Part shown: piece after piece, positions 1 to 30,226 of the stretch
Numbering within the stretch: the first letter of the stretch is position 1
Layout: each line of letters opens with the position of its first letter
Virus record (IMG/VR): IMGVR_UViG_3300020403_002101
Location: 1 to 34,497 of that record
Source of the DNA: a virus
Lineage: Duplodnaviria; Caudoviricetes
Length of the DNA: 34,497 nt
Reading direction: 5' to 3' (one strand)
Position numbers and translations under genes: made by a program
The notes under the pieces: model-generated
Told to the model about the DNA's origin: nothing
Databases searched by the model: none
Seen by the model: only the letters and a program-made list of their open reading frames with translations

Positions 1-2
1 AT

Positions 3-1382
3 AGAGAATTACATCTCAATGAATTTATACCTAAAGTAGGTAAATACCTTAAAGATAGAAACATCGATTTTCAGATGTATTTCTGTCATCAAGTAGACGA
101 TAAACTCTTTAATAGAGGGGCGACTAAAAATATTGCAGCTAAACATGCTTTAGAAGAAGGATGTGATTATATAGTATGGCATGATATTGATATGATTCCT
201 GTAGAAGGAGGAGGCGCAGACTATTCATTTCCAGAAAAAGCTCCAAGACATATTGCTACTAAAATAGAACAGATGGACTGGCAGTTAAAATATCATGAAT
301 ATTTTGGTGGTGCCGTTTTATTTAGTAAAGAACAATTAGAAGCTACTAATGGTTATTCAAATGATTATTGGGATTGGGGTATGGAGGATGATGATTTATT
401 TTGGAGATGCCACAAGGAAGGTTTAACTAATGATAGTTACTTAGATGTTAATTTAGATGGTACTCAATTTATAAGATTTAACGGAGATGATGCCTCAGCT
501 TCTATTGATATACCAGAACAATATAAAAACTTTAATAGAAGATCTCATACAGTTTCAGTTTTAACTAGAGCATTTCAAATGCCTGATAAGAATCCTATAT
601 TCTTAATCGGTAGTAAAAAAAGAAGATATGTTGAATACCCAATATTAAGAGTACCAGGTTATGATTACGGTATATCTTTTAATAATTCTAGAGCTTTATC
701 ATTAACTTTTTGGAATACTTTTAATCAACATAATTACATGTGGTTGAAAAGATATGATAATCAATGGAGCTGGGTAACTGTAGTATTTGATGATTATAAT
801 AAACTATCTCATTTTTATTTAAATGGTACTGAAGTAGATTCCTTAGCAGGATTTGGTTCTCCATCACCATATAAGTATGAAGGTAGATTAAAAAAATATA
901 ATGTAGATAAAGTATATTTAGGATCAACACCATCTGAAAAAGAAGATAGCCCTATAAAATATTTCAAAGGAGATATTGCATCAGTTAGAATATGGGATAG
1001 AGATTTAACTCCTACAGAAGTTGAAAACTTACATAAAGAGGTTCCTTCAGATGGCTTATTTATAGATTTAGATCCTGGTGATTTGAGTTCATATAATAGT
1101 GATAATATTACCATAAGTAAAGATGATATTAGAATACCTAACTCTATAATCCCACATAGAGTAGAAGGTAAGATGAGATGTTTACCTCATAAGGATGAAG
1201 GTATAGTTGGCGGTAAGTTTGTAAAAGGAGAAACTACAGCTAGGAATGAAAGACGTTATGTCTTAGAAATGCAGCAAAATAAAATTAACTATAAAAATGA
1301 TGGCTTAAAACAGGTTAAGTATGAACTTGTAGGAGAAGAGATACTTACACCGTGGGCTAAGATGATCAATGTTAAATTATGA
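3..1382 (+). CDS. GT7 (beta-1,4-galactosyltransferase-like) glycosyltransferase with inserted LamG/concanavalin A-like domain; 5'-truncated by the window edge
   Basis: The frame is open from nt 3 (RELHLNEFIPKVGKYL...), so the ATG at 75 is internal. GT7 motifs: FNRG..KNI, WHDIDMIP (DxD), YFGGAVLF, NGYSNDYWDWGMEDDD and C-terminal DGLKQVKY. LamG-like segment: WSWVTVVFD..HFYLNG..YFKGDIASVRIWDRDLTPTEV. Confidence 0.85.
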   Translation, partial: RELHLNEFIPKVGKYLKDRNIDFQMYFCHQVDDKLFNRGATKNIAAKHALEEGCDYIVWHDIDMIPVEGGGADYSFPEKAPRHIATKIEQMDWQLKYHEYFGGAVLFSKEQLEATNGYSNDYWDWGMEDDDLFWRCHKEGLTNDSYLDVNLDGTQFIRFNGDDASASIDIPEQYKNFNRRSHTVSVLTRAFQMPDKNPIFLIGSKKRRYVEYPILRVPGYDYGISFNNSRALSLTFWNTFNQHNYMWLKRYDNQWSWVTVVFDDYNKLSHFYLNGTEVDSLAGFGSPSPYKYEGRLKKYNVDKVYLGSTPSEKEDSPIKYFKGDIASVRIWDRDLTPTEVENLHKEVPSDGLFIDLDPGDLSSYNSDNITISKDDIRIPNSIIPHRVEGKMRCLPHKDEGIVGGKFVKGETTARNERRYVLEMQQNKINYKNDGLKQVKYELVGEEILTPWAKMINVKL

Positions 1383-2758
1383 ACACATCCTACGCAAAGG
1401 TAAGAGATCAGCTCAATCAAAAAGGATGTGGGTTTTGTCTCGCTAAATGGACTCAAGTAACTATGCACTTAGGTGTTGGTTTGACTCACTCATGTCACCA
1501 CCCGGTACAACATAAGATACCACTTGCAGAGTTAAAAAGAAATCCTTCTGCCTTACATAATACAAGATATAAAAAGCTTAAGAGAAAAGAAATGCTGGAA
1601 GGTAAAAGACCAGCAGAATGTAACTATTGTTGGAATATAGAAGATAACTCTAATGCTTTTTCAGATAGAACTTTTAAATCTGCAGAACCTTGGTCTTTAG
1701 ATCAAATGGAAAAGATTAAAACTTCTAATTGGAGAGATAACTATAATCCAAGATATGTAGAAGTTTCTTTTTCTAATACTTGTAACTTAAAATGTGCTTA
1801 TTGTGGACCTCAATATTCATCTAAATGGGTAGAAGAGATAGAAAAGCATGGTGAATATAAAACATCTACTGAATTTAATAGTATAAAGTTACTTAAAGAA
1901 AGGGATGAAATGCCTCTTAAGAAGACTGAACATAATCCTTATGTAGAGGCTTTTTGGGAATGGTGGCCTGATTTATACCCAGACTTACATACATTTAGAA
2001 TTACTGGAGGTGAACCTTTACTATCTCCTGATACATTCAAAGTATTAGAATATATTCAAGAAAACTGGGAACAGAATCCTAAGTTATCTTTAGCTATCAA
2101 TACTAACTTAGCCGTACCAGATAAATTAATTCAAAGAATGTTAACTATAGCAGAAGATTTAGTTAATAATAATAAAGTTAGAGAGTTTATTATCTTTACT
2201 TCAGTAGAGGCTATTGGTAAGCAAGCTGAATATACTAGATGGGGATTAAAGTATGATAAGTTTTGGGAAAATATAGATGAAATTTGTACTAGACTTCCTA
2301 AAGTAACTGTTAATATTATGGCTGCATTTAATGCATTATCTGTATTTACTTATGGTGAATTGATAGATAAAGTATTAGAGATGAAAAAGAAACATAATAA
2401 CGGACAAAGATACTGGATGACACCAGTACAGTTAGATACTGCATATATTAGATGGCCAATGCATTTATCAGTTAAAATATTAGAAGCTAAAGATAAAGAA
2501 AATATATTAGAAGCAGCTAAAAAAGCTTTGCATTATGGTTCTAATAAAATGACTAAAACTACATACGGTTTTACTGACGTAGAAATACAAAAGATTAAAA
2601 GAGTATATGATTATGCGATAGCAGAAGATTCTTTTGATACTGAAAAGTATAGAAAAGATTTTGGAATCTTTATAGAAGAAAATGATAAAAGAAAAGGAAC
2701 TAACTTTAAAGAAGTATTTCCTGAATTAGCAGAATTTTATGATAAATATAAGCCGTAG
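1379..2758 (+). CDS. Radical SAM protein 1 with N-terminal Twitch/SPASM-like domain (SCHHP type)
   Basis: CNLKCAYC (CX3CX2C), ITGGEP, INTN; N-terminal FCLAKW..SCHHP..CNYCW; ATGA overlap with the upstream gene. Confidence 0.92.
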   Translation: MNTSYAKVRDQLNQKGCGFCLAKWTQVTMHLGVGLTHSCHHPVQHKIPLAELKRNPSALHNTRYKKLKRKEMLEGKRPAECNYCWNIEDNSNAFSDRTFKSAEPWSLDQMEKIKTSNWRDNYNPRYVEVSFSNTCNLKCAYCGPQYSSKWVEEIEKHGEYKTSTEFNSIKLLKERDEMPLKKTEHNPYVEAFWEWWPDLYPDLHTFRITGGEPLLSPDTFKVLEYIQENWEQNPKLSLAINTNLAVPDKLIQRMLTIAEDLVNNNKVREFIIFTSVEAIGKQAEYTRWGLKYDKFWENIDEICTRLPKVTVNIMAAFNALSVFTYGELIDKVLEMKKKHNNGQRYWMTPVQLDTAYIRWPMHLSVKILEAKDKENILEAAKKALHYGSNKMTKTTYGFTDVEIQKIKRVYDYAIAEDSFDTEKYRKDFGIFIEENDKRKGTNFKEVFPELAEFYDKYKP

Positions 2759-3335
2759 ACATCCATGGGCATTATGGCCTAACAGTATCTGCCCAGCATT
2801 TTTAGATAAACCTGCTGTAGATAGATTACAAGGAGATCAGTATTGGAAAATAGATATAACTTTTTCATATAATGAAGTTAATATGAAGAATCAAAAAGAT
2901 ATATTTTGTATAGTTCCTAAATATACTGGACTCTCAGTATATGAAAAGAGAATATTTATAGGTGTAGGCCATGAAGACGAAGATGACTGGCATGGCACAG
3001 GTGAATTTATACAACCTAATACTAAGGAACATTTTACATTTGAACATTTTCCTAAAGATAAATTAGTTGTATATAGAAACGGTGTTAAAACTTTTGAATA
3101 TTCATTAGTTATGAGACCATTGGCAGTAGTATCACCACCTAAAGAACCTATAGTATTTATAGGAACTGATAGACATATAGTACAAGATCAACCCGAGGAT
3201 GATGATATTACAGTTTACGAATTTAAAATAACAGTTAAAGAAGGAGTTATTTGTCACCATGATTGGAGTGAAATAATTCATCATAAGTCTGTTGATAAAA
3301 CAGGTAATTGTAACTTCTTGTATGAAATGGCATGA
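2739..3335 (+). CDS. Hypothetical protein, probable LamG/concanavalin A-like beta-sandwich
   Basis: Beta-strand patterning, HFTFEH..LVVYRNG, IVFIG and C-terminal DKTGNCN resembling the DxSGNGN motif of LamG proteins. Overlaps both neighbours. Confidence 0.55.
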   Translation: MINISRRHPWALWPNSICPAFLDKPAVDRLQGDQYWKIDITFSYNEVNMKNQKDIFCIVPKYTGLSVYEKRIFIGVGHEDEDDWHGTGEFIQPNTKEHFTFEHFPKDKLVVYRNGVKTFEYSLVMRPLAVVSPPKEPIVFIGTDRHIVQDQPEDDDITVYEFKITVKEGVICHHDWSEIIHHKSVDKTGNCNFLYEMA

Positions 3336-4681
3336 AAACCAGTTACGAAAGAACAAGGCAGATTATAAAAGATATAGCTCCTCAATCGTTTTGTGCAGCA
3401 AAATGGTACAATGTATCTATATGGCTAGGTAATGGTAGAACAGCTTCATGTCACCATCCATTAGCTCATAAAATACCAGATGATGAATTAGCAGCTGATG
3501 CATCTGCATTACATAATACAAAACATAAAAAAGAACAAAGACGTAAAATGCTTGCAGGTGAAAGACCTGCTGAATGTGGTTATTGTTGGAGAGTAGAAGA
3601 TGCAGCTCAAAGTGAAGAAATTAATAGTGATAGAATATATCAAACTGCTAGATATACCGAAGAAGAAATAAAAGCATTAAAAGATATACCTTGGGATAAA
3701 AATGTAAATCCTAAAACTGTAGAAATATGTTTTGACAACTTATGTAACTTAGCTTGTTCATATTGTAACTCAGAATTTAGTTCTACATGGTCTAAAGATA
3801 TATCTACTAAAGGTGAGTATAAAAATATGGTTACTGACGGTGGTAAAACGTATAGACAAGATGGTTCTATAGCAATGCCATTTGGTAATAAGAATGAAGG
3901 TAACATTTATGTGAAACGATTTTTTGATTGGTTCCCTGAAATAAAAGATGGTATTCAAGAATTAAGAGTATCAGGAGGAGAACCTTCTCGTAGTCCTTCT
4001 TTCTGGAAACTTATTGACGTTAGTAATGACGAAAAATTTGACTTTGCAGTTAATAGTAATCTAATTATGGAAGATTCTAGATTAGATAGATTAATTAACG
4101 CTGGTCAAAAGTTTAAAAAATTAGATATCTATACATCTGCAGAATGTATGTATAAAAACCAAGAATTCGTTAGAGATGGATTCGTGTGGGATGTATGGGA
4201 AAAGAATCTTAAGAAGGCTAATGCCTCACCTCATGTGAACGGGGTATATATTATGATGACTATTTCTGTTCTAAGTATATGGACAGTAGCTGAATTTTTA
4301 CAGCAAATAGTAACATGGAAAAAAGAATGTAATGATATACATGCATTTTTTATGTCTGTTAATATACTCCGTTTCCCTTCTTTTCAGAGTGTAAATATGT
4401 TACCTCAAGCTACAAAAGAAATGTTAGCTGATAAAATAGAGAAGGTTATGGAGGTAAATAAAGACTGGATTAACGATTTAGAAAGGAATCAATTCCAAAG
4501 GTTGCTTATTTATTTAAGAAGGGTGGATACTTCTTATGAGGATGTTGATGCTTACGGTAAAAAGAAAAATGATTTTATTAACTTCATAGATCAGTATGCC
4601 GAAAGAAGAGATAAACCCATAAAAGAGTATATGCCTAATAAATTTTTAAATTGGTACGAAGACCTTAAGAATGGAGAATAA
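3332..4681 (+). CDS. Radical SAM protein 2 with N-terminal Twitch/SPASM-like domain (SCHHP type)
   Basis: CNLACSYC, VSGGEP, VNSN; FCAAKW..SCHHP..CGYCW; closest paralog of 1379..2758 (shared SALHNT..KK..R..ML.G.RPAEC). Confidence 0.92.
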   Translation: MKTSYERTRQIIKDIAPQSFCAAKWYNVSIWLGNGRTASCHHPLAHKIPDDELAADASALHNTKHKKEQRRKMLAGERPAECGYCWRVEDAAQSEEINSDRIYQTARYTEEEIKALKDIPWDKNVNPKTVEICFDNLCNLACSYCNSEFSSTWSKDISTKGEYKNMVTDGGKTYRQDGSIAMPFGNKNEGNIYVKRFFDWFPEIKDGIQELRVSGGEPSRSPSFWKLIDVSNDEKFDFAVNSNLIMEDSRLDRLINAGQKFKKLDIYTSAECMYKNQEFVRDGFVWDVWEKNLKKANASPHVNGVYIMMTISVLSIWTVAEFLQQIVTWKKECNDIHAFFMSVNILRFPSFQSVNMLPQATKEMLADKIEKVMEVNKDWINDLERNQFQRLLIYLRRVDTSYEDVDAYGKKKNDFINFIDQYAERRDKPIKEYMPNKFLNWYEDLKNGE

Positions 4682-5945
4682 GCCAAAATTTTTATGCTCA
4701 TTACCATGGGAACATTTAAGTATACATCCTCATGGTCATTCATCTCCTTGTTGTGAAGTAGACTGGGGGAGTGATATCGCTTTTGCAAAAAATAAAATTA
4801 ATGGTCAATATACTCCTAGTGTTTTAAATATTGATAGAGATGGACCTGAAGCCATAATGAACTCTGATGCTTATAAGCAAATAAGAAAAGAGATGCTAGC
4901 AGGAGATGTACCAACTCCCTGTCTTACTTGTTATAGACTAGAAGAAGCAGGAGGACAATCAAAAAGAAATAGAGAAAAAATAGTAGAAGAAGATTATTTA
5001 CGTTCTATAACTCAAGATGACGGTACCATAGAAGTAGATATTCAGAACTTGGAACTTAGATTAGGTAACTACTGTAATTTAAAATGTAGATCATGCAATG
5101 CTGAATCTTCTACATCTTGGATTGATGACTATTATAAGTTAAAAGATGAGATTCATATGCCTAGTATTTTCGATAAGTTAAAAAACTCAGAAGATACTTC
5201 ATATGAATGGGTTGATAAAGAAGAATTTTACGAAGAAATTTTAAAATACACCTCTAAACTTCATAGACTTCAGATAAGTGGTGGAGAACCTTTCCTTGTT
5301 GATAAACATAGTCATTTACTAGATTTATTAATTGATAATGATATAGCTAAAAACGTTCATATATCTTATATTACAAATGCTAATTATAACTTTGATAAAG
5401 TTAGTCAAAAGTTCTTTGATAAACTTACTAAGTTTAAAAGTGTTAATATGTCAATTAGTATAGATGATGTAGATAAAAGAAATACATATATTAGAAGTTT
5501 AAGTAACTGGAATTTAACTATAAAAAATCTTAAAAGATTTATAAATGAATATCCTTCATTTCATTATTCAGTAACTCAGACTATAAATGTATTTAACTTT
5601 TTATATGTAGAAGAATTATCACAGTTTTTAATTAATGAAGGCTTACTTTCCTTAACTGGAAAAAAACCTCTTTATATAAATGATAATTATGTCTTCTCTC
5701 CTGAGTATCAAAGTGCTAATGTTTTACCTTTAGATGTAAGAAGAGAAAAAATAGATAGTATAGAAGGTAAATTACCCGTAACATTTTATAATAGATTAAA
5801 GTCTAACTTTTATAATACAGATTGCAATGAGTTAGGTATAGATTGGATAAAAACTACTAATGCTGTAGATAGAGTAAGAAGAGAAAAAGTTACTGATATA
5901 TTTCCTGAGTTATATAAAATTATAGCAAATGAGTACAAAATTTAA
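4671..5945 (+). CDS. Radical SAM protein 3 with N-terminal Twitch/SPASM-like domain
   Basis: CNLKCRSC, ISGGEP, ITNA, ISID; LCSLPW..PCC..CLTCY. Confidence 0.92.
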   Translation: MENKPKFLCSLPWEHLSIHPHGHSSPCCEVDWGSDIAFAKNKINGQYTPSVLNIDRDGPEAIMNSDAYKQIRKEMLAGDVPTPCLTCYRLEEAGGQSKRNREKIVEEDYLRSITQDDGTIEVDIQNLELRLGNYCNLKCRSCNAESSTSWIDDYYKLKDEIHMPSIFDKLKNSEDTSYEWVDKEEFYEEILKYTSKLHRLQISGGEPFLVDKHSHLLDLLIDNDIAKNVHISYITNANYNFDKVSQKFFDKLTKFKSVNMSISIDDVDKRNTYIRSLSNWNLTIKNLKRFINEYPSFHYSVTQTINVFNFLYVEELSQFLINEGLLSLTGKKPLYINDNYVFSPEYQSANVLPLDVRREKIDSIEGKLPVTFYNRLKSNFYNTDCNELGIDWIKTTNAVDRVRREKVTDIFPELYKIIANEYKI

Positions 5946-7311
5946 ATGGCCTAAACACGATAAACTAAAAAGTACAAAATCGTTTTGTGTACTTCCTTGG
6001 TTGCATTTAAATGTACAACCTAACGGAGATATATATCCTTGCTGTATGGCACCCTATGGAGATACTATAGGTAATACATCAGACGATACTTTAGAAGAAA
6101 TATGGAACGGAGAAGCCATGAAAGACATCAGAAAAAAGATGTTAACTGGAGATAGACCAGAATTATGTCAAAGATGTTTTCTAATAGAGGATAATGGTTT
6201 AAATAGTCCAAGATACACTCATAACGATTACTTTAGAAATCGTATGGAGGAAGTATTAGATATGACTGATGAAAAAACAGGAGAGTTATCTGAGTTTAAA
6301 TTAAGATATTGGGACTTTAGATGGTCTAATATTTGTAATTTTAAATGTAGAATGTGTGGAGTTTACTCTAGTAGTAAATGGCATCAAGAAGCTATGGAAC
6401 TTCATAACGATACTACAGCAGCTGATACTAAAGGTATATTAGAGTTTAATTCAAAAGGTAAAGAAGATACTTTTGCTTTAATAGATAAGTTTATATATGA
6501 TGTAGAAGAGATATATTTTGCTGGAGGTGAACCTTTAGTGATGGAAGAACATTATTTAATTTTAGAGAAACTTATAGCAGCTGGAAGAACCGATGTAAGG
6601 TTAAGATATAATACTAACTTTAGTCATTTAAAATTTAAAAAATGGGATTTATTTGGAATGTGGCAACATTTTATAAATGATCCTAAAGGACATATACAAT
6701 TATTTGCTTCGTTAGATGCAGTAGGTAAATTAGCAGAAGTAATTAGAGACGGCACTAAATGGAATAACGTATACCAGAATATTAAAAAATGTCAAGGTAC
6801 CGGTATTATGATTTATTTTTCTCCTACTATTAGTTTACTAAATATGTTCTTTATAGATGAACTTATAGATGTAGCAGCAGAATTAAATATAGACGTAGAT
6901 AAAATAAACGTAAATAATATATTAACAACCCCAGGATTTTATGATGTTAGATTATTACCTCAATACCTTAAAGATGAATTAATAAATAAATTAAAAGATT
7001 ATAGAGATAATAAAGTACATCCTAAATATAGAGGAGTAGTAGAATATGGTTTAAAAAGTTGGAGTAGTTTTATTAACGAACCATTCAAAGGAAATAGAGA
7101 AGCTGAAGAGCAAAGTTTACTAGCTAATACAGTCTATTTAGATGTTAGCCGTAAACAATCTTTTTTAGAAGTTAACCCTCAATATGAAAGATGGTTTAAA
7201 GAGATAAGACATAGACTTGATAGCAAAGGAATAGATTGGAAAAAATTACCAAAAGGAAAGAAAGAACCAGTAATAAAAGTAACTAAAAAAGAAACCAGGC
7301 CTTTAATATGA
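5929..7311 (+). CDS. Radical SAM protein 4 with N-terminal Twitch/SPASM-like domain
   Basis: CNFKCRMC, FAGGEP, YNTN, ASLD; FCVLPW..PNGDIYPCC..IGN..TLEEIWNG..CQRCF is a close match to the SPASM/Twitch pattern. Confidence 0.93.
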   Translation: MSTKFKWPKHDKLKSTKSFCVLPWLHLNVQPNGDIYPCCMAPYGDTIGNTSDDTLEEIWNGEAMKDIRKKMLTGDRPELCQRCFLIEDNGLNSPRYTHNDYFRNRMEEVLDMTDEKTGELSEFKLRYWDFRWSNICNFKCRMCGVYSSSKWHQEAMELHNDTTAADTKGILEFNSKGKEDTFALIDKFIYDVEEIYFAGGEPLVMEEHYLILEKLIAAGRTDVRLRYNTNFSHLKFKKWDLFGMWQHFINDPKGHIQLFASLDAVGKLAEVIRDGTKWNNVYQNIKKCQGTGIMIYFSPTISLLNMFFIDELIDVAAELNIDVDKINVNNILTTPGFYDVRLLPQYLKDELINKLKDYRDNKVHPKYRGVVEYGLKSWSSFINEPFKGNREAEEQSLLANTVYLDVSRKQSFLEVNPQYERWFKEIRHRLDSKGIDWKKLPKGKKEPVIKVTKKETRPLI

Positions 7312-8336
7312 CAAAGGTACTAGATAAAAAAGATTGGGTCTGTACTCAACCATTTGAGTTTGCAGAAATATTCGACCATAAGATGTTTATGTGTTGCCCT
7401 AACTGGTTACCAGAAGATCTAGGAAATCCTAATAATATTTTAGATAATTTTAAATCTGAGAAAGCACAAGCTATTAGAGATAGCATGCTTGATGGCTCAT
7501 ATAAATACTGTATAGAGGCTAGATGTCCAAAACTTACAGGATTAAAAGAAGGTAAAACTACTGGTTTTATTCCTAAATCAGAATATATTAAAAGAATAAA
7601 GGAATTTGAAAATCAATACCCTCATCAGTTAAAATTTAATTTTGATCAAAGTTGTAATTTAAGATGTCCTTCTTGTAGATTAGATTTTATAAATTATGAA
7701 GGTAAGGAAAGAGAAAGAACAGAAGAATTAATTCAGAATATAGAAGACCAGGTTGGTAATATTTTAACTCATATTGAATGTACGGGATCAGGAGATCCTT
7801 TCTTTTCTAGAACTTTTAGAAAATGGATGATGAGATTTGATCCAACTAAGTATCCTAAGTTACAATCTATACATTTACATACTAATGGTACATTATGGAA
7901 TGAATCTAACTGGGTTAGAATGAAAAACGTTCACAGGTTTGTTAAGAGTTGTGAGATATCAGTAGATGCTTCTAATAAAGATACATATGAAAATGTTACT
8001 AGGTTAGGAGGTAAGTGGGATAAGTTGATGGAAAATTTAGAATATATTTCTAATATACCAACATTAAGAAATGTTACTCTATCATTTGTAGTTCAAAATG
8101 ACAACTTTACTGAAATGGTAGACTTTTATGATTTAGCAGGATCTATCTTTGGAGGTAAAAATAAAGAATGGAGTGTTTTTTATAATAGAGTAGTTAACTG
8201 GGGGCATTGGTCTAATGAAAAGTTTAATTCTGTCGATGTAGGTAACCCTAACCATCCAGAATTTAATGATCTAATGCAGGTATATAAAAGATTACCAGTC
8301 GTTAATAATATAAGACATAATTTAACTATATTATGA
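7308..8336 (+). CDS. Radical SAM protein 5 (divergent subfamily, GSGDP motif)
   Basis: CNLRCPSC, TGSGDPF, HTNG, ISVDA, RLGGKW; N-terminal VCTQPF..MCCP..CIEARCP. Confidence 0.9.
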   Translation: MTKVLDKKDWVCTQPFEFAEIFDHKMFMCCPNWLPEDLGNPNNILDNFKSEKAQAIRDSMLDGSYKYCIEARCPKLTGLKEGKTTGFIPKSEYIKRIKEFENQYPHQLKFNFDQSCNLRCPSCRLDFINYEGKERERTEELIQNIEDQVGNILTHIECTGSGDPFFSRTFRKWMMRFDPTKYPKLQSIHLHTNGTLWNESNWVRMKNVHRFVKSCEISVDASNKDTYENVTRLGGKWDKLMENLEYISNIPTLRNVTLSFVVQNDNFTEMVDFYDLAGSIFGGKNKEWSVFYNRVVNWGHWSNEKFNSVDVGNPNHPEFNDLMQVYKRLPVVNNIRHNLTIL

Positions 8337-9526
8337 GTTTGAGATGTGTACATATTGATGCTGGTTTAAGGATACAGAATAATGGTTCGTATTCACCTTG
8401 TTGTGTTGCAAGAGAAGTCGCGTATAAGGATGAAAATGGAGAGTATATGAATGTTAAGACTCATACATTCGATGATGCTTTTGCTTCTCCTACCTTAAAA
8501 GAAATAAGAGATGCTTTTAAAAATAATATTAAGCATCCAGGCTGTTCTGATTGTTGGCAAGAAGAAGAATTAGGTAAAAAAAGTAAAAGATTAAGAGATA
8601 ACGATAAAACTAAATTAGATAAAGTTACTTATAATAAACCTCATTCATTAGAACTTAATTTAGGTAATATCTGTAACCTTGCTTGTAGAATGTGTTATTT
8701 AGGAGCTTCAATGAATTGGAAAAAAGAAGTTAACTTAGTTAGAGATCCTGATGAGCAATGGGACAAGGAAAAAGTAAATTCAATTGCTAAAGAACATAAT
8801 AATTCTTTTACTGATGATAGTATTATATGGGAACAGCTCCATAAAAATATGAAATATGTTAAATGGATAGATACTTACGGTGGAGAGCCTATGATGATGA
8901 AAAAGCAATGGGATGCTTTACGTTATAGTGTAGAACAAGGATATGCTAAAGAACAGTATATTCATTTTAATACTAACGGTACTATATTTAAACCTGAGTA
9001 TGTAGATATTTTAAAACACTTTAAAAAAGTAGATATATCTTTCAGCATAGACGGCACTGAAAAGTATTTTGAATACATAAGATACCCAGCTAAATGGAGT
9101 GATGCAGAAAATACTATGGATACTTGGTTGGAAAATACAAAAGAATTTACTAACTTTGAATTTGACCTCTGTTTTACTTTTCAAATACTAAATGTACTTG
9201 ATTATGGTAAGACAGCGGCATGGGCTAAAGATAGAGGAATTAGAATTTATAGAAATGCAGTATATGCTCCAAAATATTATAATGCTACAAATATAGCAGA
9301 GGAGTTAAAACCTGCAGTTATAGAAAAAATTAGATCTATACCAGTTAAGTATCCTGAAATTAGAGAAGAATGGGAAGAGATAATAAACCATATTAACTTT
9401 AAAGAAGGAGAACCTGATGCATGGAGAAGATTTAAGACTTATAATAAAAATTTAGATAAATCTAGAAATCAATCTTTTGAGGAATTATTCCCAGAGGAAA
9501 CTAAGTTGTATAAAATAGTTATTTAA
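8333..9526 (+). CDS. Radical SAM protein 6 with N-terminal Twitch/SPASM-like domain
   Basis: CNLACRMC, YGGEP, FNTNGT, FSIDG, YIRYP; RCVHID..PCC..CSDCW. Confidence 0.92.
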   Translation: MSLRCVHIDAGLRIQNNGSYSPCCVAREVAYKDENGEYMNVKTHTFDDAFASPTLKEIRDAFKNNIKHPGCSDCWQEEELGKKSKRLRDNDKTKLDKVTYNKPHSLELNLGNICNLACRMCYLGASMNWKKEVNLVRDPDEQWDKEKVNSIAKEHNNSFTDDSIIWEQLHKNMKYVKWIDTYGGEPMMMKKQWDALRYSVEQGYAKEQYIHFNTNGTIFKPEYVDILKHFKKVDISFSIDGTEKYFEYIRYPAKWSDAENTMDTWLENTKEFTNFEFDLCFTFQILNVLDYGKTAAWAKDRGIRIYRNAVYAPKYYNATNIAEELKPAVIEKIRSIPVKYPEIREEWEEIINHINFKEGEPDAWRRFKTYNKNLDKSRNQSFEELFPEETKLYKIVI

Positions 9527-10371
9527 TGGACGCTATATTTACCTGGAAAAATTTAAGTACTGCAAAGGAGTTGCAAAGTACATTTTTTTGGCATTACGCT
9601 AAAATTAGTGTACAAACTGCTTCTAAATATCATAAAACTATTTTATATACTGATACGAAAGGGGCAAAACAGTTTAAAAATAATGGAATAGGATTTGATG
9701 AAGTAGTAATCTTAAAAGAGATAGAAGATATAACAGGTAGTTTAATTTGTATACCTAAAATATACACTATGCTTCAAAGAACTGAACCTTACGTTCATTT
9801 AGACTTTGATATCTTTACAAATAGAGAATACCATACATATGAACCAATAGCTTTTGGGTACCCCGAAGTTAATTTAAAAAAATATTTCGGTCTTACTGAA
9901 TTAAGGTATTTAAACGATAACTATCTAAATGCTTATGAAAAAGAATTTTATATGTACTTCGATGGTAAAAACTGGGATTGGAGATTAATACCTAATTTTG
10001 GCGTCTTTATAGTTAATAATCCTTCTTTAGTTAAAGATATATTTTCTAGAATATTAAAAAAGATAGAAAGATTCGAACCAAGTTCTAGTACTAAACATGA
10101 ATATGCTTCATTTATAGAGCAATTTTTATTTATGCGGTATGTTGAAGAGTTTGATATAGATTATGAATTTATATACGATAAGTCACCTTTTACGTTTAAA
10201 GATAGCAATTTCGTGTATGTAAAAGATAAAATGATTAATGTAAGTTATAAATCAGGTATAAGTACGCATTTGAATACTTTAAAGTTTGCACACTTTCATG
10301 GTTATAGAAAATTTCCTACATTTAGCAATACGATAATTAAAAAATTAATAACAAAAGAAAACCCAATATAA
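9526..10371 (+). CDS. DxD-motif GT-A-like protein, DUF6734-like
   Basis: ILYTD..G, PKIYTMLQRTEPYVHLDFDIF, PNFGVF and FIEQF match, from memory, the DUF6734 / nucleotide-sugar transferase-like pattern. Confidence 0.6.
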   Translation: MDAIFTWKNLSTAKELQSTFFWHYAKISVQTASKYHKTILYTDTKGAKQFKNNGIGFDEVVILKEIEDITGSLICIPKIYTMLQRTEPYVHLDFDIFTNREYHTYEPIAFGYPEVNLKKYFGLTELRYLNDNYLNAYEKEFYMYFDGKNWDWRLIPNFGVFIVNNPSLVKDIFSRILKKIERFEPSSSTKHEYASFIEQFLFMRYVEEFDIDYEFIYDKSPFTFKDSNFVYVKDKMINVSYKSGISTHLNTLKFAHFHGYRKFPTFSNTIIKKLITKENPI

Positions 10372-10372
10372 A

Positions 10373-10645
10373 ATGGCAAAAAAAGAAGAACAAAAAAAAT
10401 CAATACCTTTAGAAGAGCAAGAGATTACCAATCTACAGATTATACAGAACCGTAAGACTGCTTTAAGAAATGAATTAGCTGAAATAGGTTTAGCTGAATT
10501 AGCTTTAGAGAACAGAAAAGATAGCGCCAAGCTATTTAATAATAAGACCATCGAGATGGGATCTCAAGTAGGTAAGGCACTAGAGGAAAAGTACGGTAAA
10601 GGAATGCTTGATCTTGACAAAAAAGTTTTCGTCCCACAGGATTAG
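10373..10645 (+). CDS. Small coiled-coil hypothetical protein upstream of the tail sheath
   Basis: 90 aa, helical heptad pattern, ends LEEKYGKGMLDLDKKVFVP; A-rich start context. Confidence 0.7.
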   Translation: MAKKEEQKKSIPLEEQEITNLQIIQNRKTALRNELAEIGLAELALENRKDSAKLFNNKTIEMGSQVGKALEEKYGKGMLDLDKKVFVPQD

Positions 10646-10721
10646 GTTTACGCTAAATTTACTCTATTTATTATTGTACCCTAAACGTAAATATAGATTA
10701 GTGTTTTAGGTATAATGACGA

Positions 10722-10729
10722 TATTTATA
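10722..10729 (+). promoter_or_regulatory. TATTTATA motif, candidate late promoter of the sheath gene
   Basis: Intergenic, about 30 nt before ATG 10759. The same motif precedes several other structural genes. Confidence 0.55.
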
Positions 10730-10758
10730 AGAGTACTCAATAATATAATTTTCAAAAC

Positions 10759-12525
10759 ATGGCAGAAACATTAATTTCCCCAGGCGTACTAGCGAGAGAA
10801 AATGACATTTCTTTTATCGCACCAGCAGCTATTGAAGCAGGGGCAGCGATTATAGGACCTACTGTAAAAGGACCTGTTGAAGAGCCAGTAAAAGTAACTT
10901 CATACGGACAGTATCAAAATATATTTGGTACAGTATTTACTTCTGGATCTACAAAACAAGAATTTCTTACTTCTATCGCTGTTAAATCTTACTTTAACCA
11001 AGGTGGTAATTCAATGCTTGTAACAAGAGTTGTTACAGGATCTTTTGGAGTTGCTAGTAACTCTACAATCTCAGCAGCAGATTCAGGTACAGCACCATTC
11101 ACATTAGCTACTTTAGGTAAAGGAGCAATCTTTAATAACATCACAGGATCTACTTACAATGAAGTAGGATATGACGAAAATAGTGATGGTTCTTTAGTAT
11201 CAGGTTCTTCTGATAACTTAAGATGGGAGATTGTTAATCAAGATACTGCAGCTGGAACATTCGGTCTATTAATTAGACGTGGGGATGATAACTCAAAGAA
11301 CAAAATTATCTTAGAAACTTGGAACGATTTATCATTAGATCCAAATTCTGAGAACTATATCGAATCTGTTATCGGTAATCAAAGCAAGTCAAAAGCTGTA
11401 GATAACGGACAGTATTACATTACAACTACTGGTGAATATGTAAACAGATCTAAATACATTAGAGTATCTGGTGTAGCAAGACAAACATTAGACTATGTAG
11501 GTAATGATGGATTAACAGTTGGTACTGACGAATCAGGAAATTCATTCTCTGGATCTCTTCCAAGTAACCAATCAGGTTCATTCCACGGAGGTACTGGTAA
11601 TAATGTAGTAGGTGGAAGCACGAGAGACAAATACTTCGGTGACATTAACGGAACAGATACACAAGGTTTAACAGGAGCTTGTTATGCAGATGCAATTTCA
11701 ATCTTAGGAAATCAAGACGAGTACGTTTTTAATATAATTTCTGCCCCAGGATTGATTTATGAATTTGGAGATCACAAGACTCAATTAGACTCAATTATCT
11801 CTACAGCTGAAAGTAGAGGAGATTGTATCGCTGTTATTGATGTACAGAATTATGGCGCAACAGTAGCTAACGTAACAGGAACTGCAGCAACATTAAACAG
11901 TTCTTATACTGCTACTTACTGGCCATGGTTACAAACTTTATCATCTAATGGAAAAACAGTATGGATCCCAGCATCAGTAATTATACCAGGAGTATATGCA
12001 TTTACTGATAGTGCAGCAGCACCATGGTTCGCTCCAGCTGGTTTAACTAGAGGTGGTTTAGGAGATGTAATTCAAGCAGAAAGAAAACTTACAAGATCTC
12101 AAAGAGATACTTTATACAACGCAAATGTTAACCCAATTGCAACATTCCCAGGAAGTGGAATCTCAGTATTTGGTCAGAAAACATTGCAAAAGAAAAAATC
12201 TGCTCTAGACAGAGTAAATGTTAGAAGATTGTTAATTGATCTTAAGAAATTCTTAGGAGATACAGCTAAGCAATTAGTATTCGAACAAAATACTATCGCA
12301 ACTAGAAATAGTTTCTTAGCTACAGTTAACCCTTACTTAGAATCAGTAGTACAAAGACAAGGTCTTTATGCATACAGAGTAGTAATGGATGACAGTAACA
12401 ATACTCCTGACACAATCGATAGAAACCAATTGATTGGACAGGTATTCATTCAACCAGCTAAAACAGTTGAATTCGTAGTACTAGACTTTACAATCGAGCC
12501 AACAGGCGCAACTTTTGGAGCATAA
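10759..12525 (+). CDS. Contractile tail sheath protein (T4 gp18-like)
   Basis: N-terminal SPGVLAREND, GPTVKGP; C-terminal YWPW, PWFAPAGLTRG, LYNANVNPI, FGQKTL, LDRVNVRRLL, IQPAKTVEFVVLDF. Confidence 0.96.
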   Translation: MAETLISPGVLARENDISFIAPAAIEAGAAIIGPTVKGPVEEPVKVTSYGQYQNIFGTVFTSGSTKQEFLTSIAVKSYFNQGGNSMLVTRVVTGSFGVASNSTISAADSGTAPFTLATLGKGAIFNNITGSTYNEVGYDENSDGSLVSGSSDNLRWEIVNQDTAAGTFGLLIRRGDDNSKNKIILETWNDLSLDPNSENYIESVIGNQSKSKAVDNGQYYITTTGEYVNRSKYIRVSGVARQTLDYVGNDGLTVGTDESGNSFSGSLPSNQSGSFHGGTGNNVVGGSTRDKYFGDINGTDTQGLTGACYADAISILGNQDEYVFNIISAPGLIYEFGDHKTQLDSIISTAESRGDCIAVIDVQNYGATVANVTGTAATLNSSYTATYWPWLQTLSSNGKTVWIPASVIIPGVYAFTDSAAAPWFAPAGLTRGGLGDVIQAERKLTRSQRDTLYNANVNPIATFPGSGISVFGQKTLQKKKSALDRVNVRRLLIDLKKFLGDTAKQLVFEQNTIATRNSFLATVNPYLESVVQRQGLYAYRVVMDDSNNTPDTIDRNQLIGQVFIQPAKTVEFVVLDFTIEPTGATFGA

Positions 12526-12538
12526 TTTAATTTGTAGA

Positions 12539-12546
12539 TATTTATA
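12539..12546 (+). promoter_or_regulatory. TATTTATA motif, candidate late promoter of the tail tube gene
   Basis: Lies in the 37-nt sheath-tube gap. Confidence 0.55.
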
Positions 12547-12562
12547 ATAAAGAAAACATAAA

Positions 12563-13048
12563 ATGGCAGTACTAGATCCTAACGAAATAATGTTTAGAGC
12601 CTTTGAACCGAAGGTACAGAATAGATTTATCATGTATGTTGATGCTATTCCATCCTTCATGATCAAAAACGTAACGGCTCCTTCTTTCACTGATGAAGAA
12701 GTTAAACTAGATCATATGAATACTTACCGAAAAATCAGAGGTAAGAGAAACTGGGAAAATATGGATATGACTCTATATGATCCGATAACACCTTCTGGCG
12801 CTCAAGCGGTAATGGACTGGGCAAGACTTTCTTATGAGTCTGTAACAGGAAGAGCAGGGTATTCAGATTTCTATAAAAAGGACTTAACTTTAAACGTATT
12901 AGGACCTGTAGGTGACGTAGTAAGTGAGTGGGTAATCAAAGGTGCATTTATAGTAAATATGGCACAAGGATCATTTGATTGGGCTACTTCAGACGTTGCT
13001 GAGCTAACAATTACAGTAGCGATGGATTACTGCGTATTAAATTATTAA
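12563..13048 (+). CDS. Tail tube protein (T4 gp19-like)
   Basis: 161 aa directly after the sheath; FEPKVQNRF, GKRNWENMDMTLYDPI, YKKDLTL..LGPVGDVVSEWVIKGAF. Confidence 0.92.
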   Translation: MAVLDPNEIMFRAFEPKVQNRFIMYVDAIPSFMIKNVTAPSFTDEEVKLDHMNTYRKIRGKRNWENMDMTLYDPITPSGAQAVMDWARLSYESVTGRAGYSDFYKKDLTLNVLGPVGDVVSEWVIKGAFIVNMAQGSFDWATSDVAELTITVAMDYCVLNY

Positions 13049-13071
13049 TTAGGAATTACCGTAGGAAAAAT

Positions 13072-13098
13072 AGCTCGATTTTATCGGGCTTTTTTTTT
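13072..13098 (+). terminator. Rho-independent terminator after the tail tube gene
   Basis: AGCTCGAT-TTT-ATCGGGCT stem (one G-U pair) followed by a run of 8 further T. Confidence 0.85.
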
Positions 13099-13106
13099 AG
13101 TTATAT

Positions 13107-13853
13107 ATGAAATTAGTTTGGACTTATAGTGATAGGTTTAAAAAAGGTAAACCTAATAAAAATACCGTAGCTACTCACGAATATATTCAATTTCTTTTTA
13201 GAAAAGCAATTAAAGAAGCTCCTTCTTCTTATCAAAAAGTAGTATTTACTGATGACTACAACTTTTCTCTCTTTAAAGACCTAGACGTAGAATTAATCCC
13301 AGCACCAAAAAAAGACTTTATATTTTTAGATGACTTAAAATTTGATGCTGCTGAAATAATAGATGGAGAGTTTATTATATCTGACGGAGATCTTTTTATA
13401 AAAGAAGAATTATTTATTCCTTCAAATTATAAAGTAGGTTTTGAGGTAAAGGTGGACTGTAAACCTTGTTTAGATTCTAAAATATTAATGCAAAAAGAAG
13501 GTATAGGTGATATATTACCGTATTGGAAAGGTAACAATAGTTTTATTAATAATTTAGGATTAATGTACTTTAATGATAATACCTTAAAAAAAGATATTAT
13601 TAAGGAATATAGAAATACTCAAACTTTTTTTGCAAAATTTATAGATAGTCAATATAAAATTAACGAAAGAGATGTATTATTTGGCGGGATAGGATGCTGT
13701 ATGTTCTTATACCAATACCTAAGTAGTAGAAAAATACCTACATTTTATTTTATAGATAATAATTTTGGTAAATATGATCATTTAGGAGCTCCTAGAAAGT
13801 TGGAATTCTTAGATGAATTTCATAAATTAAATGGAGGACCTCCTTTAATATGA
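13107..13853 (+). CDS. DxD-motif GT-A-like protein, DUF6734-like; distant paralog of 9526..10371
   Basis: MKLVWTY, KVVFTD, LKF..GEFIISDGDLFI, NNLGLM and YDHLG follow the same motif order as 9526..10371. Confidence 0.55.
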   Translation: MKLVWTYSDRFKKGKPNKNTVATHEYIQFLFRKAIKEAPSSYQKVVFTDDYNFSLFKDLDVELIPAPKKDFIFLDDLKFDAAEIIDGEFIISDGDLFIKEELFIPSNYKVGFEVKVDCKPCLDSKILMQKEGIGDILPYWKGNNSFINNLGLMYFNDNTLKKDIIKEYRNTQTFFAKFIDSQYKINERDVLFGGIGCCMFLYQYLSSRKIPTFYFIDNNFGKYDHLGAPRKLEFLDEFHKLNGGPPLI

Positions 13854-14545
13854 AAGAAGTTACAGTTGTATTAACGAGTTGTGGTAGATTAGATTTGTTA
13901 TCTAAAACTATAAAGAGTTTTAATAAGTATAATACTTACCCTATATCTAAATTTATTATAGTAGATGATAGTGGGGATGAGTCTATTCATGAACAAGCAG
14001 ATAAATTACTTCCAGCCTTACTCGAACAATATGATCACTTTGTTATATTCAATAATAAAAGACAAGGTCAGATAAAGAGCATAGATGATGCTTACAGTTT
14101 AGTAAAAACACCGTATATATTTCATTTAGAAGACGACTGGGAGTTCTATAAACATTCATTTATAGAGCATTCATTTAAACTAATGGATGAGAATTCTAAA
14201 TTAATAACTGTTTGGTTAAGAGAATTAGACGATACTATGGATAATCCAATTGAGGGCGAGTGTCATTCTAATGGTAATTTAAAATACTATTATGTTAAAA
14301 ATAACAAAGGTTGGTCTGGTTTTTGCTTTAACCCAGGACTAAGAAGATATAGTGATTATAAAACTATTGCGCCTTTTAAAAATGTTGTACCTAAACATTT
14401 AGTAGATATACCTAAATCAGTTATGGAAGCAGAATTAGCTATAAGTAAAAAATATGGTGAGTTAGGATTCAAAGCTGCTATTTTTGATGAAGGATACGTA
14501 AAACATATCGGATGGGCAAATACAACTAAAGAATCATTATTCTAA
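13850..14545 (+). CDS. Family 2 glycosyltransferase
   Basis: VTVVLTSCGRLDLLSKTIKSF, IIVDDSG, YIFHLEDDWEF, YVKHIG. Confidence 0.88.
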   Translation: MKEVTVVLTSCGRLDLLSKTIKSFNKYNTYPISKFIIVDDSGDESIHEQADKLLPALLEQYDHFVIFNNKRQGQIKSIDDAYSLVKTPYIFHLEDDWEFYKHSFIEHSFKLMDENSKLITVWLRELDDTMDNPIEGECHSNGNLKYYYVKNNKGWSGFCFNPGLRRYSDYKTIAPFKNVVPKHLVDIPKSVMEAELAISKKYGELGFKAAIFDEGYVKHIGWANTTKESLF

Positions 14546-15174
14546 TGAACAATATAAAATATAAACATACTACTGAACTTCATAATCTTGAATCTCCAAG
14601 TGTAGTAGTACCAATTATTAATTCTTTATTAGAACCTAAAAGTGTAGTAGATTTTGGATGCGGTTTAGGAACATGGTTAAAAGTTTTTAAAGACTCAGGA
14701 ATAGATAACCTATTAGGTTTAGATGGAGATTGGATAGATAGATCAAAATTTGAAGCATCTGTAATAGGTAGTTTTAAAGAAGTAGATTTAGAAAAAGAAA
14801 TTAAACTTGAAAAAAAATATGATTTAGCAATATCTTTAGAAGTTGCAGAACATTTACATAAAGACTCAGCAAGTATATTTGTAGAAAATTTAATAAATGC
14901 ATCAGATATAGTTGTATTTTCAGCAGCAGTACCTATGCAGGGAGGGCAGAATCATATTAATGAACAACCTTTAACATACTGGATTAACTTATTTAATGAG
15001 TATGGTTATAAATTTAATGATATTATACGAGGTAGAATATGGAATATGGAAAAAGTATTCTGGTGGTATAAGCAAAATATGGTAGTATTTTCAAAACATG
15101 ATTTAAATATTACTCCTATATATCCAATAAATATATTACACCCAGAATCTAGACCTAAAAAAACAATAATATAG
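14545..15174 (+). CDS. Class I SAM-dependent methyltransferase
   Basis: VVDFGCGLGTWL, YDLAISLEVAEHL, FSAAVPMQGGQNHINEQ; a type commonly seen in polysaccharide loci. Confidence 0.9.
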   Translation: MNNIKYKHTTELHNLESPSVVVPIINSLLEPKSVVDFGCGLGTWLKVFKDSGIDNLLGLDGDWIDRSKFEASVIGSFKEVDLEKEIKLEKKYDLAISLEVAEHLHKDSASIFVENLINASDIVVFSAAVPMQGGQNHINEQPLTYWINLFNEYGYKFNDIIRGRIWNMEKVFWWYKQNMVVFSKHDLNITPIYPINILHPESRPKKTII

Positions 15175-15236: not shown

Positions 15237-15980
15237 ATGGAAAAATCAAACAAATTTCCTAGCGAAATTGTAGAATTACCTTCAAAAGGCTTATTGTATT
15301 CAGAAGATTCACCTCTAAGATCCGGAAAAATAGAGATGAAATACATGACTGCAAAAGAAGAAGATATTCTAACAAATCAAAATTACATTGAAAGAGGAGT
15401 AGTAATAGATAAACTATTACAAGCTCTAATTGTAGACAAGGACATTAACTACAATGACCTTCTTATAGGGGATAAAAATGCTCTCCTTGTGGCTGCAAGA
15501 GTTTTAGGTTACGGTAAGGATTATGAATTCAATTACGGTGATACTAAAGAAGTTATAGATCTTTCTAAATTAGATAATAAAGAGGTAGACTATAAAACTC
15601 TTACAGGCGGTAAAAATGAATTTAATTTTACATTACCTACTACAGGTGATGAACTTACATTTAAACTTCTTACACATGGTGATGAGTCTAAGATACAAAG
15701 AGAAATAACTGGACTTAGAAAAGTAAATAAAGATGCATCACCTGATTTATCTACAAGATTAAAGTATATGATTATCGCAGTAAACGGTAATGGAGATACT
15801 AAAACTATTAGAGAATTTGTAGATAATCAATTCCTAGCAAGAGATTCTAGAGAATTTAGAAAACATGTTGAGAAGATCTCCCCAGACGTAGATATGACAT
15901 TCTACCCTGAGAACGGTCCAGAGGAGGGGGTGACTATACCCATTGGGGTTACCTTTCTTTGGCCTGACGCAGCAATATAG
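15237..15980 (+). CDS. Baseplate hub / tail assembly chaperone (T4 gp26-like)
   Basis: VELPSKG..Y, MKYMTAKEEDIL, LLIGDKNALLVAARVLGYG, FTLP..LTFKLLTHGDE; lies between tube and tape measure. Confidence 0.8.
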   Translation: MEKSNKFPSEIVELPSKGLLYSEDSPLRSGKIEMKYMTAKEEDILTNQNYIERGVVIDKLLQALIVDKDINYNDLLIGDKNALLVAARVLGYGKDYEFNYGDTKEVIDLSKLDNKEVDYKTLTGGKNEFNFTLPTTGDELTFKLLTHGDESKIQREITGLRKVNKDASPDLSTRLKYMIIAVNGNGDTKTIREFVDNQFLARDSREFRKHVEKISPDVDMTFYPENGPEEGVTIPIGVTFLWPDAAI

Positions 15981-16209
15981 GGTTAATCTGTTTACACAGA
16001 TTCATGAGATAGTATTTCATGGGAAAGGCGGATATGACTACGATACCGTCTATGGAATGCCGATTTGGTTACGTAATTTTACATTTAAAAAAATGCAAGA
16101 ACATTACGAAGAAGAGGCAAAACAGTATAAAAAAGGTACACCTTCTAAGTCGATGCCTAAGGGTCCGGCTATTAGGAAACCTTCTTACACAACAAAGGCT
16201 CGCAAATAG
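15943..16209 (+). CDS. Second tail chaperone segment (T4 gp51-like); probably reached by a +1 frameshift from the upstream gene
   Basis: LFTQIHEIVFHG.GGY....VYGMPIWLRNFTFKKM resembles gp51-type segments. It overlaps the upstream ORF in the +1 frame and has no ATG until 16057. Confidence 0.65.
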   Translation: MGLPFFGLTQQYRVNLFTQIHEIVFHGKGGYDYDTVYGMPIWLRNFTFKKMQEHYEEEAKQYKKGTPSKSMPKGPAIRKPSYTTKARK

Positions 16210-19484: not shown

Positions 19485-19492
19485 TATTTATA
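19485..19492 (+). promoter_or_regulatory. TATTTATA motif after the tape measure gene
   Basis: Directly after the TMP stop, 24 nt before ATG 19517. Confidence 0.55.
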
Positions 19493-19516: not shown

Positions 19517-19690
19517 ATGGGAATTTTAAAAAATCAATTAAACTCAGTATTAGGATTAAAAGGTGAGAACCAGCCAATAAGAGATGCTGCTAAATCTACT
19601 AGTACTGTACATAAGAATGATAAAGAAGATTACAGTGCATTTGATCTAAATGCTATAACTCCAGAGAAGTATACAAATCCAGAAGGATAG
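19517..19690 (+). CDS. 57-aa hypothetical protein (absent from the ORF track)
   Basis: Translated by hand: MGILKNQLNSVLGLKGENQPIRDAAKSTSTVHKNDKEDYSAFDLNAITPEKYTNPEG*. It fills the gap exactly and ends 3 nt before the next ATG. Confidence 0.7.
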   Translation: MGILKNQLNSVLGLKGENQPIRDAAKSTSTVHKNDKEDYSAFDLNAITPEKYTNPEG

Positions 19691-29634: not shown

Positions 29635-29813
29635 AAAAACTAAAAGAAAAGTTATACGGATGGGCGATGGAATCTCCTTTACGTAAATGGGCACTATCGC
29701 TTACAGGATGGAAGTGGTGGTTTTATCAAATAGTAGTTTGCGGTATTATATTTCTTATTATGGAATGGTTATTAAATAAAATAGGAATGACAATGTTACC
29801 ATGGAAACAATGA
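29631..29813 (+). CDS. Small membrane protein
   Basis: 60 aa, Trp-rich with one hydrophobic segment (WWFYQIVVCGIIFLIMEWLL); overlaps both neighbours. Confidence 0.6.
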   Translation: MKKLKEKLYGWAMESPLRKWALSLTGWKWWFYQIVVCGIIFLIMEWLLNKIGMTMLPWKQ

Positions 29814-30226
29814 AAAAAGGAGTAATAGCAGGTAATTTTGACGTTATACATCCAGGATATATTAATATGTTCAAGGAAATGGCAGACAATTGCGACTGTG
29901 TTATAGTATTACTTCACACTGACCCTTCAATTGAAAGACCACATAAGTTAAAACCTATTTTATCATCAGATGATAGAAAAGAAATGTTAGAAAGTATCAA
30001 GTATATAGATGATGTGATAAGATATACTTATGAAGAACAATTATACGATTTACTTAAAGTAGGAGAATTTGATGTAAGATTTTTAGGGGATGATTATAAA
30101 AATAAACCTTTTACTGGTGATGATTTAAAAATACCTATCCACTATCTTAATAGAGATCATGGATGGTCAACAACTAAGTTTAAACAGTTAATCGCAGAGA
30201 GTTATGAAAAAGCTAATAATAGTTAG
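29801..30226 (+). CDS. Cytidylyltransferase-like nucleotidyltransferase (TagD-like); start may be 29810
   Basis: GNFDVIHPGY (HxGH variant), R..ML.SIKYIDDV, GDDY, R..GWSTTK. Confidence 0.85.
   Translation: METMKKGVIAGNFDVIHPGYINMFKEMADNCDCVIVLLHTDPSIERPHKLKPILSSDDRKEMLESIKYIDDVIRYTYEEQLYDLLKVGEFDVRFLGDDYKNKPFTGDDLKIPIHYLNRDHGWSTTKFKQLIAESYEKANNS

Follow-up and report, generated by a model that had tools for sequence, protein, structure and literature searches.

Gene islands in which radical S-adenosylmethionine (SAM) enzymes accompany glycosyltransferases (GTs) have already been published for T4-like aquatic phages. GT8-rich host recognition clusters of pelagimyophages differ from one another by their radical SAM cassettes (Zaragoza-Solas 2020, PMC7029224), and Nishimura 2017 (PMC5332604) described a marine T4-like phage whose genome holds 12 radical SAM genes. 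Both are variable islands of the structural region that hold tail fibres, GTs and radical SAM cassettes; the accessible sections of these papers leave the radical SAM enzymes untyped and read the island as O-chain modification. Phage-encoded GTs are also known to decorate structural proteins of mycobacteriophage virions (Freeman 2023, cited in PMC12619734 and PMC12691614), and core GTs were noted in large Bacteroidota phages (PMC12619734). Here, the IMG/VR record IMGVR_UViG_3300020403_002101 was analyzed, a 34.5-kb stretch (34,497 nt, termed the window) of a T4-like myophage genome that carries six radical SAM genes (R1 to R6) in overlapping order. The window is one more example of the widespread island. 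It differs from the published clusters in its host, which is likely a member of the Bacteroidota, and in its core, which consists of a GT7-LamG protein, a free LamG module and a DUF6734 protein instead of GT8. The array is a real, selected and accessory set of radical SAM enzymes with an N-terminal twitch domain, located in a phage glycosylation island, and provides a clean, testable example. It is proposed with moderate confidence that the six enzymes, encoded in an accessory GT-like island of the tail-fibre region, edit the sugars of a phage-made glycan, most likely on virion proteins. The mycobacteriophage virions are a precedent for this target, although radical SAM tailoring is unmentioned in the available parts of those papers. 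The window adds a Bacteroidota-phage layout, a cultured island-free relative as a natural control and a predicted GT fold for DUF6734.

All six genes are located on the plus strand: R1 (1379..2758, 459 aa), R2 (3332..4681, 449 aa), R3 (4671..5945, 424 aa), R4 (5929..7311, 460 aa), the shorter and divergent R5 (7308..8336, 342 aa) and R6 (8333..9526, 397 aa). A preliminary description of the DNA had predicted six radical SAM proteins with a CX3CX2C motif and had suggested searches with PF04055 and PF13186. All six proteins exceeded the PF04055 cut-off (41.1 bits for R5) and contain CX3CX2C, and the SPASM domain PF13186 was reported for R3 (residues 9-88) and R4 (residues 20-83, E 1e-14). The Cys-rich N-terminal domain that had been noticed is equally real, as its four cysteines are kept in all six proteins and align to C20, C39, C81 and C84 of R1. 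The twitch domain precedes the barrel in every one of them. The NCBIfam model NF033640 (N_Twi_rSAM, twitch domain-containing radical SAM protein; cut-off 170 bits) recognized R1 (332.5 bits), R2 (279.5 bits), R3 (316.6 bits), R4 (369.8 bits) and R6 (304.2 bits), whereas R5 fell below the cut-off at 64.2 bits and is, judged by its sequence, a divergent relative that is still twitch-first. The enzymes are not QueE or NrdG, as had been argued, nor are they MoaA: the best scores were 42.5 of 284 bits for MoaA, 21 of 260 bits for QueE and 20.6 of 131 bits for NrdG2. The viperin model reached 32.9 bits at best (cut-off 180 bits), and the listed SPASM models for maturases of peptides that are ribosomally synthesized and then modified post-translationally (RiPPs) all scored 42 bits or less against cut-offs of at least 265 bits. 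Literature searches with the NF033640 name and accession, with DUF6734 and with phage radical SAM plus glycosylation returned no functional study. The chemistry can thus still be called uncharacterized, no reaction having been assigned in the literature found, but the family itself is catalogued as NF033640, which NCBIfam presumably lists as being of unknown function.

Several finer features of the array needed adjustment. A GGE-like motif had been described for all six proteins; its exact form (as GGEP) is present in five, while R5 reads GSGDP. A C-terminal motif was said to be common to five proteins, which holds only loosely because its strict form, D..R(8)P, is found in three (R3, R4 and R6); the arginine of R1 lies one place earlier, R2 lacks the aspartate and R5 has no such motif. 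The overlapping operon was found as described in that all junctions from the GT7-LamG gene through the DUF6734 gene overlap by 1-20 nt without a gap, but R1 and R2 are separated by an open reading frame (ORF) of 198 aa that does not encode a radical SAM protein (2739..3335).

The copies were described as intact and highly diverged, and both statements were verified. Compared with the syntenic locus L001 (73-92% identical), the ratios of nonsynonymous to synonymous substitution (dN/dS) of the six genes range from 0.074, the value for R5, to 0.166, next to 0.132 for the tail sheath. The six genes are under purifying selection, and decay of the array is ruled out by these values. Mis-assembly was ruled out as well because contigs independent of the window cover the array: one contig from another study spans 3123-13321, including R2 to R6, unbroken with 128 differences and zero gaps, and another covers 1-3067. 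R2 to R6 are only 15-33% identical to R1. In a FastTree phylogeny of 211 sequences (near-midpoint rooting, fragments and weak matches excluded) R2 forms the sister clade of R1, and each paralog groups more closely with its orthologs from other phages than with the genes next to it. Recent tandem duplication was rejected on this basis, and the tree indicates that the six paralogs are old subfamilies.

The domain anatomy provides the main hint at the chemistry. A profile built from 45 N-terminal domains matched only BtrN among the solved structures in the PDB (E 4.5e-6), with all four cysteines aligned, and these cysteines are 99-100% conserved across four subfamilies. The same profile also picked up twitch domains at the C terminus of canonical enzymes that co-occur with the family (6 matches). 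BtrN (2-deoxy-scyllo-inosamine dehydrogenase; PDB 4M7S and 4M7T) shares with the phage enzymes a homologous twitch domain, the same four cysteines and the radical SAM core. In BtrN, however, the twitch domain follows the barrel, while the phage enzymes have the reversed order and an extra helical C-terminal part and, unlike BtrN, occur as arrays beside GT genes. According to PMC9012708, the BtrN auxiliary cluster is ligated by four cysteines and goes with the two-electron oxidation of an aminocyclitol, whereas the MoaA auxiliary cluster has three cysteines and binds substrate. R1, the only one of the six enzymes that was folded, gave a model with a predicted local distance difference test (pLDDT) score of 96 that comprises the twitch domain, the radical SAM core and the helical C-terminal part. 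The absence of a close solved relative was borne out, as the best fold match in the list has a Z score of 14.6 and identities do not exceed 17%. The model matches partial TIM-barrel cores of radical SAM enzymes, namely SkfB (Z 14.6, root-mean-square deviation 3.6, 231 aligned residues), anSME (13.1) and BlsE (13.1); the top matches listed for the whole model, those of Foldseek included, do not contain BtrN. Residues in the active-site region differ by subfamily, with R207, D96 and H40/H41 in R1 and R2 and other residues in R3 to R6, which is consistent with different substrates or positions.

The genes on both sides of the array extend the context beyond what had been described. Upstream, a GT7 (beta-1,4-galactosyltransferase-like) protein with a LamG domain is encoded at 1..1382 on the plus strand (PF02709, 4e-19; PF13385, 1e-13); it is cut by the contig start and 470 aa long in the sister contig L237. 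The 198-aa ORF between R1 and R2, also on the plus strand, encodes a free module of the LamG/ConA-like type, a homologue of the LamG insert seen in GT7 proteins: its family profile matched these inserts in round 1 (E 4e-7) before converging, and its Atlas leads were carbohydrate-binding modules only. Downstream, the plus-strand gene at 9526..10371 encodes a DUF6734 protein (PF20508) with an invariant DxD (D93/D95). Its model (pLDDT 91) resembles UGGT, GNPT/CpsY, glycogenin and LgtC as top folds (Z 10.8-12.6), and a GT-A (nucleotide-sugar transferase) fold is predicted on the strength of this fold match, since zero sequence matches were obtained in the PDB. DUF6734 is a mostly viral family, and the literature search turned up no paper naming it. 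Sister contig L237, 98.6% identical to the window over 9.4 kb, shows the upstream order as tail fibre, two small ORFs, DUF6734, methyltransferase, GT2-like gene, 77-aa ORF, two GT7-LamG genes and R1, with gaps of at most 18 nt. Its tail fibre consists of 22% Ser+Thr. None of the window cassette proteins has a membrane-span hydrophobicity peak above 1.9, and they look soluble; soluble GT-like proteins with predicted transferase activity are encoded in the virion gene region. A Trp-rich helical ORF of about 75 aa (L237 5617-5850) is highly conserved and directly precedes the GT7-LamG pair in most Bacteroidota-type cassettes, while an unrelated ORF of about 115 aa precedes the GT pair of the T4-type cassettes.

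Judged by the tail sheath, the nearest relative in culture is Flavobacterium phage immuto_2-6A (61%), and Immutovirus is collinear with the window from the sheath through position 24790. On these grounds the host of the window phage is likely a member of the Flavobacteriia. Immutovirus has fibre genes followed by the sheath at the corresponding place, without a radical SAM block, and its whole genome contains no NF033640 match; the island is therefore accessory in this phage lineage.

The rarity ascribed to the array was overstated. An estimated 9,100 IMG/VR stretches match the family, 8,526 clusters at 50% identity match at E<=1e-30, and the 12-gene phage had been reported in 2017. Among 77 viral loci retained out of 636 confirmed matches, a GT-like (GT-A) gene is located directly upstream of an R1-type gene in 61 and within three genes in 67. 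R1 is the paralog that is conserved as the core member beside the GT gene. The slot before R1 is occupied either by GT7-LamG (23 loci) or by a non-homologous T4-type DxD family (51 loci), never by both; a glycogenin/GT8-like protein (E 4e-7) belongs to the T4-type core, and the DxD family stands beside a glycogenin-like pair. Reverse searches, which used the best 80 matches of each scan in sets that overlap and include near-duplicates, detected a radical SAM enzyme of the family near 77 of 79 informative GT7-LamG loci (one was too short) and in 55 of 71 loci of the T4-type GT-like family (nine were too short), and a glycan-family gene is carried by 75 of 80 R4-type loci. Further neighbours are NDP-sugar epimerases, RmlC, UDP-glucose dehydrogenase, DegT and carbamoyltransferase. 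In cultured Vibrio phage K566, four relatives are interleaved with two GT8 genes and one weak GT4-like gene, and the relatives in KVP40 are distant and below the cut-off. Cultured phage RsoM2USA has the T4-type core, and its cassette is located downstream of ORF361, ORF359 and ORF356, whose products were found in virions according to the accessible part of PMC8504454. Loci contain between 1 and 8 radical SAM copies in the flanks that were retrieved, and five of the 79 GT7-LamG loci with such a gene repeat exactly the order of the six genes, at identities down to 54-84%. The preliminary description had offered a multi-step pathway or one enzyme per substrate; this variation makes a fixed six-step pathway doubtful. 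A frequent neighbour of about 410 aa with a conserved TEKxxKP motif (family F10, 25 loci, e.g. L005 13633-14916) had no Pfam, NCBIfam or PHROG match and one short PDB match; it is possibly a further GT, with a tentative GT10-like motif.

Fused proteins were surveyed among the top 150 representatives, which include 48 long proteins, 18 of them scanned with Pfam. Tandem fusions of radical SAM units make up most of the 48. Twitch-first units are naturally joined as doubles or triples in many cases (P0018-P0150), which suggests that the paralogs act together. Three fusions join R1 to a GT7/GT2-like domain (P0076), a T4-type GT (P0038) and a LamG-type module (P0047), though these are single records that may be frameshift artefacts. 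Among cellular genomes, 7 of 75 loci carry phage-cassette genes. These seven contigs of bacterial metagenome-assembled genomes (L083, L090, L092, L094, L095, L148 and L149) are probably mis-binned phage DNA, so that part of the 'bacterial' NF033640 membership may be viral.

The timing of expression was approached through sequence motifs. A late-promoter-like motif, ATATTTATA, precedes the tail sheath gene (10721..10729, plus strand) and is also found before the tube (12539), hub (15200) and tape measure (16221) genes. TATTTAT(A/T) precedes virion genes both in the window and in Immutovirus, where 14 of 15 matches in the virion region are no more than 100 nt ahead of a gene start, and it also precedes the fibre gene heading the run in L001. 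Late read-through into the array is plausible on account of these positions. In T4-type cassettes, TAAATA was found in 15 and TTGACA in 10 of 32 upstream gaps. Scans of the sequence for sigma70 promoters (78 versus 90 in shuffles) and terminators (6 versus 5) gave no excess. Contigs on parts of the array were present in two RNA libraries of one sample, in which DNA carry-over is possible and depth cannot rank the genes.

The substrate class had been left open between peptides or proteins and sugar-like compounds, and the gene context now points to sugars over peptides because GT and LamG genes are tightly linked to the radical SAM genes. Good confidence can be placed in sugars or glycans as the substrates overall, a class shared among virion, host surface, small molecule and DNA targets. 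Virion proteins are favoured as the site because the island follows the tail fibre in L237, this fibre is rich in Ser and Thr, the cassette proteins of the window look soluble and the cassette of RsoM2USA stands behind genes for virion proteins. In the proposed mechanism, a glycan would be assembled on structural proteins in the cytoplasm by the soluble pair of GT7-LamG proteins together with the GT2-like and DUF6734 proteins. SAM would be cleaved at the CX3CX2C cluster of each radical SAM enzyme, which would then remove a hydrogen from the carbon of a sugar that belongs either to a nucleotide sugar or to the glycan under construction. The spare electron would pass to a fully ligated auxiliary [4Fe-4S] cluster of the BtrN type, and the outcome would be a two-electron oxidation to a keto-sugar or an oxidative decarboxylation; this type of oxidation is suggested by the alignment of the twitch domain with the four-Cys cluster of BtrN. 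R1 may act on a conserved core sugar, while R2 to R6 would be exchangeable editors, each specific for a position, and would make the glycan diverse in the way known from O-antigen loci. The favoured reading is a radical and probably oxidative modification of a glycan that likely sits on virion proteins.

Several observations weigh against this proposal. In K566 and KVP40 the clusters have the NAD-salvage gene nadV in their vicinity, and the stretches inspected contain no gene annotated as a fibre. Fusions to subtilase, GNAT and TPR repeats also exist, and a recognized glycan gene was found in only 24 of 68 non-phage cellular loci, a control-free count from incomplete annotation. The whole-fold matches of the R1 model give sugar enzymes no preference. 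Of the gaps at operon starts, just 3 of 13 and 2 of 41 had the late motif, with noisy gene starts, and the TTGACA boxes of the T4-type cassettes fit earlier expression. For every member, the reaction, the product and the glycosylation of the virion are predictions from genes.

An unlikely alternative, although the strongest of those considered, is that the same sugar-editing enzymes target a host surface glycan (lipopolysaccharide/O-chain or capsule precursors at the cytoplasmic face) and so alter receptors against competing phages or grazers. This is the published reading of the pelagimyophage clusters, as given in the accessible sections (PMC7029224). The TTGACA boxes resemble sigma70 -35 elements in the cassette leaders, and the 24 cellular loci place relatives beside Wzm/Wzt-like ABC transporter, flippase, GT2 and DegT genes. 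Against it, a screen of the window cassette and the core families for membrane-spanning proteins yielded none (one screened sequence was just over 1.9), the block sits within the virion module and after a fibre gene, and GT7 and glycogenin-like families are familiar from the glycosylation of glycoproteins.

Production of a diffusible sugar-derived small molecule or cofactor (an aminocyclitol, nucleoside or glycolipid) during infection is improbable. The characterized twitch relatives BtrN and BlsE do belong to antibiotic pathways, viperin and MoaA were the best matches of a whole-profile sequence search of the PDB, and many cellular copies stand in unrelated contexts; yet the window contains neither scaffold-forming nor export genes, and the constant position behind fibre genes together with the shuffled paralog sets fits a surface structure under diversifying pressure. 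Slightly less probable again is the crosslinking or modification of a peptide or protein in the manner of RiPP enzymes or anSME, for instance of the Trp-rich small ORF product or of fibre residues. SkfB and anSME as top fold matches, the conservation of the Trp-rich ORF in 17 of 23 GT7-type loci (ORFs of at least 60 aa were searched) and the fusions with TPR, subtilase and GNAT domains would agree with such a role, whereas the RiPP-maturase models scored far below their cut-offs, the N-terminal domain is a twitch domain and not a peptide-recognition element, and the Trp-rich family is missing from T4-type cassettes that retain R1.

A sugar-bearing DNA base modification is the least probable reading: phage GTs often glycosylate DNA (PMC7029224 and PMC12619734, in their accessible parts) and carbamoyltransferases and methyltransferases are frequent neighbours, but no base-hydroxymethylating or DpdA-type gene was found in 41 family representatives and 77 further neighbours (one ThyX lies at the island edge), the nearest cultured relative, which lacks the NF033640 family, modifies its DNA via a separate deazaguanine cluster according to the available part of PMC10516641, and the LamG modules and the fibre location would be left unexplained. 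A Tet/JBP search of four related genomes gave no match, with the controls likewise unmatched.

If virion glycans are edited, this would account for a puzzle noted long ago, the sugar-gene islands beside the tail fibres of aquatic myophages that are now read as host lipopolysaccharide modification; it would also bring phages with Gram-negative hosts into the range of virion glycosylation and would supply many new radical carbohydrate enzymes. More tentatively, the tail fibres of large aquatic phages may be coated with a glycan that is radically edited and varies between strains, produced by shuffled sets of domain-permuted radical SAM enzymes that each perform a different C-H transformation on a sugar. 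Such a coat would be the viral parallel to the variation of O-antigens and would open a very large, still untapped source of radical chemistry on carbohydrates.

The remainder of the window is that of a T4-like myophage, with sheath, tube and baseplate genes as well as genes for a DNA polymerase A-like protein, SSB, UvsX, a helicase and ribonucleotide reductase. Related near-complete records measure 170-290 kb, and the Fe-S carrier PF01521 is present in one of four related genomes. Marine metagenomes of several studies contain near-identical DNA, and 16 runs hold half or more of the sequence words of the window. The run that includes the array ends with a 90-aa ORF (10373..10645, plus strand), which probably belongs to the lineage core and not to the cassette, as its family member in locus L008 has a 40% match in the Immutovirus gene that precedes the sheath. 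The tail sheath gene (10759..12525, plus strand; PHROG 23, E 2e-73) is part of the virion module that brackets the island. A second accessory insert between tube and baseplate hub (13107..15174, plus strand) comprises an ORF of no assigned family, a GT2 gene (PF00535) and a class I methyltransferase gene (PF13489), and no counterpart was detected in the Immutovirus region searched. The similarity of the ORF at 13107 to DUF6734 is not significant (probability 1.6%). Contigs of two other studies skip 629 nt at 14525-15155 and with them most of the methyltransferase gene, which points to a presence/absence variant in the population. Further downstream, a small ORF of less than 60 aa (19519-19690), between the tape measure and the gene after it, follows a late-type motif at 19485, and the family A DNA polymerase-like ORF (24848-26173) encodes only 441 aa with a short Pfam match at residues 229-313. 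In the replication region, two adjacent cytidylyltransferase-like genes (29801-30626, PF01467) might supply activated sugars or polyols. Finally, a small ORF between the baseplate hub and tape measure region (15943-16209) matches Immutovirus at 48%.

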